A DNA stretch of 64,000 bases from an uncultured Alphaproteobacteria bacterium (GTDB lineage Bacteria; Pseudomonadota; Alphaproteobacteria; RF32; CAG-239), in the NCBI GenBank assembly GCA_944391475.1, contig CALXTR010000004.1, positions 25,807-89,806 on the forward strand. The letters run 5' to 3'. The first letter of the stretch is position 1; each line of letters starts with the position of its first letter. Made by a program: the position numbers and the translations under genes. Below are positions 35,937-36,487 of the stretch, one piece after another. The notes below the pieces were generated by a model. The model saw nothing but the letters and a program-made list of their open reading frames with translations, was not told where the DNA came from and made no database searches.

Positions 35937-36411
35937 CAATCAGCCTACACAACCATTAAAAAAAGCCTCCCTTGGGGGAGGCTTATAATTTGGAAGGGAC
36001 GGGATTTTCCAGCTCGGTTTGTAACACTCGCTTGCCACGCTTTCGCGGGCTCGCTCTTTAACAAACTTTCGCCTGTCGTTATAAAAAGCTCCACCGGAGC
36101 TTTTTATCGCCTCCAGCCACCGAACACGAGAGCTCGTGTCGGTGTTCAATCGGCCTACACAACCATTAAAAAAAGCCTCCCTTGGGGGAGGCTTATAATT
36201 TGGAAGGGACGGGATTTTCCAGCTCGGTTTGTAACACTCGCTTGCCACGCTTTCGCGGGCTCGCTCTTTAACAAACTTTCGCCTGTCGTTATAAAAAGCT
36301 CCACCGGAGCTTTTTATCGCCTCCAGCCACCGAACACGAGAGCTCGTGTCGGTGTTCAATCGGCCTACACAACCATTAAAAAAAGCCTCCCTTGGGGGAG
36401 GCTTTTTTTAA
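35937..36411. repeat. Tandem direct repeats with a 210-bp period (2 full copies and a partial third) abutting tRNA-Phe
   Basis: Units begin at 35937, 36147 and 36357. Each carries a terminator-like hairpin (GCCTCCCTTGGGGGAGGC) and fragments resembling the tRNA-Phe 3' half (GGGACGGGAT, CCACCGAACACGAG). Confidence 0.8.
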
Positions 36412-36487
36412 TGGTGCTCAGGGACGGGATCGAACCGCCGACACGAGGATTTTCAGTCCTCTGCTCTACCGACTGAGCTACCTGAGC
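36412..36487 (-). tRNA. tRNA-Phe (GAA)
   Basis: The minus strand folds into a cloverleaf: GCTCAGG TA GCTC AGTCGGTA GAGC A GAGGA CTGAAAA TCCTC GTGTC GGCGG TTCGATC CCGTC CCTGAGC A CCA. The anticodon is GAA and the 3' CCA is encoded. Confidence 0.9.

Follow-up and report, generated by a model that had tools for sequence, protein, structure and literature searches.

Immediately 3' of its tRNA-Phe gene, the window (the whole stretch of 64,000 nucleotides analysed here) carries a tandem array that is real and belongs to a known and fairly ordinary class of copy-variable repeats, rather than being a series of scars left by mobile elements. The explanation proposed as a whole, which is considered probable, combines a copy-variable tandem duplication built on duplicated terminators, an ancestral duplication of the tRNA 3' half and a role of the array as a stack of terminators. 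The case invites caution, as fragments resembling a tRNA are usually taken as integration scars when they adjoin its gene, and here the comparison of strains shows plain duplication through homologous recombination of duplicated terminators.

Layout of the array and its hairpins

The sole tRNA gene of the window is a tRNA-Phe (GAA) on the minus strand at 36412-36487, found by ARAGORN, scoring 69.9 bits against the Rfam tRNA model, with its CCA encoded and 100% identity across the related loci. Next to it, at 35929-36404, Tandem Repeats Finder places a repeat with a period of 210 bp (2.3 copies, 98% matches, score 931), and a repeat search of the window returned two 210-nt copies at 99% identity together with three copies of a 56-nt core. 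Each 210-bp unit is composed of T, a terminator module of 56 nt, and X, a spacer of 154 nt. Read in the direction of the tRNA, on the minus strand, the verified coordinates give the order tRNA, T1 (36349-36404), X1 (36195-36348), T2 (36139-36194), X2 (35985-36138) and T3 (35929-35984), which agrees with the first-pass annotation, where a partial unit followed by two further 210-bp units had been described 3' of the tRNA-Phe. X1 and X2 are identical (154/154) and so are T1 and T2; the distal module T3 differs from them at 3 nt (GGCTGATTGAGCGCCGA), all of them in its 3' part. The GC content of X1 is 0.51, against 0.43 for the window.

The T module consists of the hairpin AAGCCTCCC-CCAA-GGGAGGCTT, followed by T7 and then by AATGGTTGTGTAGGCCGATTGAACACCGA, the latter being part of the tRNA 3' half copied in inverted, degenerate form. 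The GCCTCCC...GGGAGGC hairpin, rightly placed in the units by the same annotation, occurs three times, always in the array and nowhere else in the window, and was matched in 0 of 100 shuffles. Its fold is calculated at -15.8 kcal/mol, with T7 next on the tRNA strand. At the tRNA-proximal module, a perfect palindrome with 20-nt arms (ACCATTAAAAAAAGCCTCCC / GGGAGGCTTTTTTTAATGGT) spans 36372-36415, without an assigned strand, being returned by the inverted-repeat search and by the terminator scan and folding at -15.8 kcal/mol; its outer arm takes in the terminal ACCA of the tRNA-Phe, and it is predicted to be a bidirectional intrinsic-terminator hairpin. In the terminator scan, T2 and T3 appear on the minus strand, and the hairpin of T1 is called on the plus strand. 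On the tRNA strand, T7 follows each of the three hairpins; a T run on the opposite strand as well is seen at T1 only, T2 and T3 being predicted terminators in the tRNA direction alone. With a GC-rich hairpin and a T run, on both strands in the case of T1, the module has the makeup of a putative intrinsic terminator. A sigma-28-type promoter (GCCGAT...) in T was considered by eye and rejected, because it is not conserved in lineage B (defined below) and has the wrong spacing.

Comparing the two lineages of this locus, the stem of T reads GCCTCCC/GGGAGGC in lineage A and GCCCTCC/GGAGGGC in lineage B, with mirrored, compensatory changes, and the palindrome arms of 19-20 nt are perfect in both; therefore, the T hairpin is maintained. 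This upkeep is due either to selection or to palindrome-templated correction, as in quasipalindromes, where the template switches described mend a small number of bases within short, imperfect repeats (PMC7202029). Such template switching would explain arms that are perfect and yet diverged between lineages, as well as the inverted copy of the tRNA 3' half downstream of the hairpin, but its application to an inverted tRNA copy of approximately 35 nt would be an extrapolation from the described events.

Two other hairpins belong to the unit. H1 (CACCGACACGAG CT CTCGTGTTCGGTG; -16.1 kcal/mol) lies on the minus strand at 36328-36354, with a second copy at 36118-36144, its right arm opening X1. 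It is followed within X by H2 (AAAAAGCTCCGGTGGAGCTTTTT), a second terminator-like hairpin placed between A and T runs (36293-36315, second copy 36083-36105, no assigned strand), whose core stem reaches -7 kcal/mol on both strands and which is kept in lineage B. The remainder of X is a variable centre and a short tRNA copy at the 3' end.

Copy number among related loci

Upstream of the tRNA-Phe lie a 711-aa open reading frame without Pfam domains and flgE, and at the distal edge of the variable zone the flagellin gene (33936-35054, plus strand; Pfam Flagellin_N and Flagellin_C) runs convergent with the tRNA gene. Related loci were found through the exact 711-aa protein and its homologues, and later through flagellin homologues, giving approximately 25 contigs of the same locus, all of them metagenomic, from the human gut wherever a source is named, the titled MAGs being labelled 'uncultured Alphaproteobacteria bacterium'. 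Lineage A comprises the window, three contigs whose flgE is 100% identical to it at the nucleotide level (L001-L003) and L010 (FlgE 96% identical in amino acids). Lineage B, compared with the window, has 85% amino acid identity in FlgE and 97-98% in AccC and ThrS, with 38-51% identity at 4-fold degenerate sites. A FlgE search of genome contigs gave two MAG contigs only, both stopping before or inside T. Contigs of the P0002 and P0003 lineages break off at the tRNA. L019, L031, L032 and L033 proved to be other flagellin loci without a tRNA-Phe and are uninformative here.

The 3' flank of the tRNA-Phe is a variable spot within this clade. The arrangement T-X-T is present at the tRNA-Phe/flagellin locus in both lineages, with a repeat period of 209 nt in lineage B against 210 in the window, and the number of X copies differs. 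L001-L003 have one X, flanked by exactly the T1 and T3 of the window (T1-X-T3). In lineage B, one X is found in eight contigs (L016, L021, L023, L024, L026-L028 and L030), at least two in four others (L005, L014, L022 and L025) and none in L007 (the same contig as L029), where the tRNA is followed by one T and then by flagellin. These copy numbers are lower bounds, because most of the contigs compared come from short-read metagenomes, in whose assembly tandem repeats may be collapsed or broken, and several of them end in the array (L006, L010, L014, L017 and L025). In L020, T and the initial 28 nt of X have given way to a 1.9-kb AT-rich insert with a Fic gene, placed at the tRNA 3' end. The differing downstream genes of L004 were also considered as evidence of rearrangement and then dropped; its tRNA carries an A5-C68 mismatch, so that L004 was probably assembled as a chimera across a second tRNA-Phe gene.

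The units are therefore head-to-tail, near-identical, polymorphic in copy number among close strains and confined to one locus, as in a tandem duplication. Since L001-L003, with their 100% identical flgE, hold a single X between the same T1 and T3, the window is one duplication apart from them. Very likely, its array arose from this single-X state by one unequal homologous crossover or by slippage. The exchange would have fallen within the 39-nt hairpin part of T that is common to T1 and T3, giving T1-X-(T3/T1 hybrid, equal to T1)-X-T3 as the product. T2 has the diagnostic 3' variants of T1, as a hybrid junction copy should if an unequal crossover fell in the hairpin part, and thus reads as the product of a single T3-T1 crossover or slippage. 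In lineage B, the T copies are mosaics of a few variants (loop TC/TT, GGTA/GGTG and G-run length), and the middle T of L022 is mixed, joining the loop of T3 to the downstream site of T1, as unequal crossover predicts. T3 of the window is itself B-lineage-like at 2 of the 3 sites that separate it from T1 and T2 (GAGCGCCGA). By the same route of unequal recombination, arrays would expand, contract and vanish, the reverse reaction leading to the contig with no copy.

Intergenic arrays of the VNTR type grow and shrink when their flanking direct repeats undergo unequal homologous recombination or when replication slips from one to the other. The array resembles them in its 99-100% identical head-to-tail units, in the occurrence of zero, one or at least two copies, in its hybrid junction and in the loss between flanking repeats. 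It differs in that the flanking repeat is terminator-like, that the unit holds tRNA sequence in both orientations and that the module, in its single-copy form, is conserved between lineages almost saturated for synonymous change.

Tandem repeats of 210 bp at 99-100% identity assemble poorly and the related short-read contigs often break at this point, which raises the question of whether the extra unit of the window is an assembly artefact. This is very improbable, as the array is internally consistent and ends in a distinct distal T3, and arrays of at least two copies were seen independently in four other samples (the lineage B contigs named above); moreover, a contig without any copy exists too, and therefore copy number varies in nature. 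In practice, short-read assemblies of these uncultured gut Alphaproteobacteria break or collapse at the repeat, and it could be used as a strain-typing marker. It also yields spurious ORF calls. Open reading frames of 189 aa (plus strand) and 139 aa (minus strand) run through it, and protein coding was rejected on account of the 209-nt period in lineage B, the lack of a conserved ATG and the terminator hairpins inside the frames.

tRNA-derived fragments and the question of integration

When the units are aligned to the tRNA, as the first-pass annotation had suggested, two direct fragments and an inverted one are recovered. At the 3' end of X, ATCCCGTCCCT equals tRNA positions 57-68 (11/11; minus strand, 36205-36215, second copy 35995-36005), and at its 5' end CTCGTGTTCGGTGG resembles positions 40-53, with 13 matches and one indel (minus strand, 36327-36340, second copy 36117-36130). 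In each of the two lineages, 1 of 500 dinucleotide shuffles attained the summed local-alignment score of this direct pair, supporting the earlier claim that the units contain fragments like the tRNA 3' half. The inverted copy, of tRNA 40-60, had escaped notice; it lies in the 3' part of T (minus strand, 36343-36361, second copy 36133-36151, truncated in T3 at 35929-35941) and its score of 23 was reached by 0 of 500 dinucleotide shuffles. All three fragments are recovered in lineage B, where the inverted copy is exact (13/13; 0 of 500 shuffles). H1 is formed where the inverted and the direct copy of tRNA 40-53 meet, the former as its left arm and the latter as its right. Moreover, the entire tRNA 3' half may be read, inverted, degenerate and collinear, in the sequence 3' of the T hairpin, since this opens with TGGT and closes with ...CGACACGAG. 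The direct fragments are without tRNA positions 69-76 (acceptor and CCA end), whose place is taken by TCCAAATTAT in lineage A and by CTTTTT in lineage B. A view of X as a decayed whole tRNA gene plus its leader was rejected, as local alignment gave three short fragments only.

Direct tRNA-derived fragments downstream of a tRNA, at a flank that varies between strains, are also what integration would leave, and the units had been interpreted as attL/attR-type scars of repeated integration and excision at the tRNA-Phe, belonging to a decayed island. A variant of this view would be a cis-mobilizable mini-element moved by an integrase encoded elsewhere. The tRNA-3'-half origin of the fragments and the variable flank stand; serial integration and the decayed island do not, and the interpretation as a whole is unlikely. 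The H1 palindrome of tRNA sequence has a superficial resemblance to a recombinase core site, and tandem arrays could stem from the re-integration of an excised circle of X and T. However, the units are identical in both X and T, hence not independent events, and X1 and X2 do not have the different content of successive insertions; L001-L003 stand one duplication away. The fragments do not reach the end of the gene as a direct repeat of the tRNA 3' terminal segment would, lacking positions 69-76, which a displaced attR should keep, with a best direct match of 11 nt. The repeated block consists instead of 56-69 nt of terminator past the tRNA, longer than a typical att core, and its extent fits a duplication of the region. 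In addition, the T variants are shuffled as by homologous exchange at several points, not at one fixed site.

The presence and absence of X among strains is compatible with both views. L007 has the one-T site that would count as 'empty', X-bearing strains have an identical 712-aa protein next to the site, and such clean-edged presence/absence is equally what site-specific excision leaves. A homologous deletion between two T copies predicts this single-T site (L007/L029) as well, and because T-X-T is the state shared by both lineages, the empty site is most simply a secondary deletion.

As for the enzymes, the absence of an integrase had been noted before, and Pfam scans of the window ORFs between 16 and 60 kb gave no recombinase domain; nor is there an integrase among the precomputed gene calls of the approximately 25 related loci, occupied sites included. 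The foreign, AT-rich DNA of L020 (1.9 kb, Fic gene included), placed exactly at the tRNA 3' end, favours integration at this point, yet the insert has no Pfam match to a recombinase and PHROGs gave one family of unknown function only. A 64-aa fragment of this insert with an 'LLNHS...T' motif, faintly recombinase-like by eye, was rejected after the Pfam and PHROGs searches. Units of only 210 bp, without cargo, together with the lack of an integrase in the scanned part of the window and in the related loci, do not fit a decayed island.

Searches for the repeat elsewhere, which the integration hypothesis called for, gave this locus only. A conserved 20-mer of X had 0 matches across 185,579 species genomes and two true matches in metagenomes, both at tRNA-Phe/flagellin; two further 20-mer matches (L013 and L015) were put down to chance, lying inside a high-GC coding gene. 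No match was found for X motifs or for the tRNA 3' end in viral contigs, nor by blastn for the T-X-T segment in phages or plasmids, and an nhmmer profile found X at no other locus in all 33 loci and the window. These results count against integration and led to the rejection of a dispersed element and of a phage or plasmid origin. They also bear on the idea that X and T form a miniature non-autonomous transposable element (MITE, REP or PATE-like) adjoining the tRNA by chance, which small size, terminal hairpins, tandem copies and presence/absence polymorphism could suggest. With one locus only in the window, the fetched loci and the public scans, where a dispersed repeat would have multiple copies per genome, no terminal inverted repeats flanking the unit, no target-site duplication besides T and unit boundaries coinciding with the homology between T copies, this idea is extremely improbable, and a dispersed MITE-like element is ruled out as far as the data reach.

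Known integrations at RNA genes, whose scars are marked by a direct repeat of the gene's true 3' end, an integrase module and cargo-bearing islands that differ from one another, resemble the array in part. In the ssrA islands of Dehalococcoides, the repeat is the true 3' end of the gene, e.g., 20 bp of ssrA (PMC3146451), and in the accretion of CIMEs and IMEs, cis-mobilizable elements are bounded by direct repeats of the tRNA or tmRNA 3' end (PMC5704250). As in both, partial direct copies of an RNA gene lie downstream of the intact gene at a strain-variable locus, and, as in CIMEs, the unit contains no recombinase. Here, however, the units are identical 210-bp repeats, the fragments are without the last 8-9 nt of the tRNA, the repeat is mostly terminator past the gene, and no integrase was found in the loci scanned.

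Duplication without an integrase is preferred for the ancestral T-X-T too, with moderate confidence: a partial duplication of the tRNA 3' half and the palindromic terminator would have produced it, the direct and inverted copies possibly arising through microhomology-mediated duplication and palindrome-templated strand switching. The centre of X, of approximately 110 nt, lies outside the tRNA-derived origin proposed for the rest of the module. It is conceivable that a single integrase-driven event gave rise to the very first T-X-T long ago. With direct and inverted pieces of the tRNA nested about its palindromic terminator, the locus offers an example of how terminator palindromes may grow.

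Conservation, possible role and neighbourhood

Between the lineages, X is 72% identical, compared with 38-51% at 4-fold degenerate sites, and neighbouring promoter-containing intergenic regions are level with it (71-79%). The best-conserved parts of the unit are the hairpin stems and the tRNA-like fragments. Judged by this conservation, X is not neutral junk. Moreover, over the 129 nt formed by T and the initial 73 nt of X, L010 has only 2 differences from the window, whereas the neighbouring intergenic regions of the two are 81-86% identical and their flgE 4-fold sites 40%. This likeness, unusual for X and also predicted by horizontal spread of an integrating element, exceeds what a plain terminator would need and points to stronger selection or to a recent exchange between lineages.

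What X may do is addressed by several readings of its sequence. Regarding a terminator function, the most likely of them, T-X-T would be a stack of tRNA-derived intrinsic terminators with drifting copy number. Its members would be the three T hairpins with T7 on the tRNA strand and the weaker, symmetric H2 on both strands, and the stack would insulate two highly expressed, convergent transcription units, tRNA-Phe and flagellin, the copy number itself being close to neutral. The terminators predicted at T and H2, the maintained T hairpin and the position where two convergent units meet are the reasons for this proposal, which is the weakest step of the explanation and is put forward tentatively, with chances somewhat short of even. 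Bidirectional intrinsic terminators are described between convergent genes (bioRxiv 10.1101/2022.10.23.513370), and T1 resembles them in its GC-rich hairpin, its A run and T run and its position between convergent units, H2 having the same symmetric design. On the other hand, a T run on both strands is found at T1 only, and a stack of three to five terminators with tRNA palindromes is outside the described class.

A second possibility is that X is an sRNA gene, or the RNA of a 3' external transcribed spacer produced by read-through of the tRNA-Phe, and that the array is a gene-dosage polymorphism. Among the tRNA-derived motifs of the unit is one antisense to tRNA-Phe 40-60, and the unit is closed by its own strong predicted terminator; X changes at roughly a third of the rate of 4-fold sites and hardly varies within lineage B, and T and X together are 98% identical between the window and L010. 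Its fold is stable (-81.4 kcal/mol, z = -5.0), with a GAAA-tetraloop hairpin in the centre of X in lineage A. Nevertheless, the opposite strand folds almost as well (z = -4.1), and RNAalifold, run on 5 sequences from two divergent lineages, conserves H1, H2 and the terminator only, with one compensatory pair and a covariation term of +1.68; lineage A breaks the central helix seen in B, and the alignment gave no support to a conserved structure in the centre of X. No promoter-like site was found inside the units, the only TATAAC-like hexamer (lineage A) is not kept in B, and the internal, terminator-like H2 would cut any read-through transcript. X is also missing from L007, and is therefore dispensable. 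No Rfam family reaches threshold in either lineage: with E values up to 10 for the window and up to 1 for L016, only the tRNA passes, the rest being far-below-threshold chance matches to terminators and hairpins, so that the repeats are not a known structured RNA, which the first-pass annotation had named as a finding that would contradict its own interpretation. Taking both sides together, an RNA gene in X is quite unlikely.

Spacer RNAs of this class, such as 3'ETS-leuZ of E. coli, are structured segments that follow a tRNA gene and end at a terminator. T-X-T is likewise stable, structured, directly downstream of a tRNA and terminator-ended; it differs in the strong T1 terminator predicted between the tRNA and X, and has no sequence or Rfam similarity to them. 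If X were transcribed, it would be a new tRNA-derived RNA, and nothing in these results demands transcription.

More specific still, and distinctly improbable, is the proposal that X is a selected tRNA-Phe-derived element with dosage-tuning copies, either an sRNA antisense to tRNA 40-60 through the left arm of H1 or a miniature cis-mobilizable module. In the first case, the H1 left arm could pair with tRNA-Phe or its precursor; in the second, the module would be recognised by a recombinase encoded elsewhere.

Apart from these readings of X, the DNA adjoining the array contains another tandem duplication, on the same strand (minus), which the earlier annotation did not mention. Tandem Repeats Finder reports it at 35028-35943, with a unit of 453 bp, 2.0 copies and 99% identity, and it holds a gene for a 92-aa acyl-carrier protein (ACP) twice, at 35572-35850 and 35119-35397. 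A 10-nt microhomology, CTGATTGAGC, common to T3 and the flagellin 3' end and found at 35028, 35481 and 35934, marks the junctions of this duplication. As the ACP gene was duplicated at such a microhomology, this stretch is prone to duplication without a recombinase.

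Duplicated acyl carrier protein genes beside the array

The gene of a 92-aa PP-binding (acyl carrier) protein, ACP, stands twice beside the array as a 453-bp tandem duplication (window 35028-35943), with its junctions at a 10-nt microhomology, CTGATTGAGC, common to T3, the distal copy of the 56-nt terminator module, and to the 3' end of the flagellin gene. The final 27 nt of the flagellin gene also recur downstream of the first ACP copy. When the ACP region of the window (35119-35850) is compared with that of the related contig L001 (8649-9380), the N-terminal region of the protein is unlike the version carried by L001-L003, despite flgE being 100% identical. 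As the two copies of any one strain (window, L001-L003) share a single N-terminal version, concerted evolution or cassette replacement is suggested. Lineage B, the more distant relatives, lacks ACP genes. In the window, a perfect-looking palindrome, AATTTTAACATTCGG/CCGAATGTTAGAATT, is found once per ACP gene (35872-35901 and 35419-35448), in both cases placed after a promoter-like site and before the start codon, and may be an operator.

Divergence among close relatives

Between flgE and tRNA-Phe, a 711-aa ORF on the minus strand (window 36573-38708) encodes a product with no Pfam domain, and its amino acid identity falls to 43-56% among strains with 96% identical FlgE; it is a hypervariable orphan protein of the flagellar locus. 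Base composition differs as well, as seen at the 4-fold degenerate sites of accC (window 40788-42143 vs 134-1489 of the compared contig L005), where T at 42% and C at 26% stand against T at 16% and C at 50% between the two lineages, while the encoded protein is 98% identical; close relatives are set apart by a strong GC3 shift.

Insertion and altered neighbourhoods

In the contig L020, a 1.9-kb AT-rich insert (4920-6820) is flanked by the tRNA-Phe 3' end on one side and by the distal 126 nt of the 154-nt spacer X on the other. This insert, seen in one sample, has a terminator of its own and, as coding content, small ORFs and a gene of the Fic/DOC family; no integrase was found in it. In L004, position 68 of the tRNA-Phe (6226-6301) is a C, which forms an A5-C68 mismatch. 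The genes that follow this tRNA (DivIC, PgpA) are completely different, and the contig was probably joined chimerically across another copy of the tRNA-Phe gene.

The flagellin P0044 is identical in L021, L022 and L024, where the neighbourhood upstream of the flagellin at 3501 differs, its neighbour being a thrS, BatD or Trypsin_2 gene, varying by contig. A flagellin paralogue is also present at a BatD locus, and together these different contexts indicate either flagellin-paralogue recombination or chimeric assemblies.

Open reading frames and motifs within the array

Long ORFs run across the repeat array, on the plus strand antisense to the tRNA in the window (35907-36476) and, as annotated by the gene caller, in the contig L025 (4739-5041); these are spurious "hypothetical proteins". 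The spacer X holds two conserved GCTGG motifs (window 36110-36129 and 36216-36225, also in the second unit), one being GGCTGGAGG and the other AGCTGGA in lineage A (window, L001-L003 and L010) or AGCTGGT in lineage B. The lineage B sequence GCTGGTGT agrees at 7/8 bases with the E. coli Chi site.
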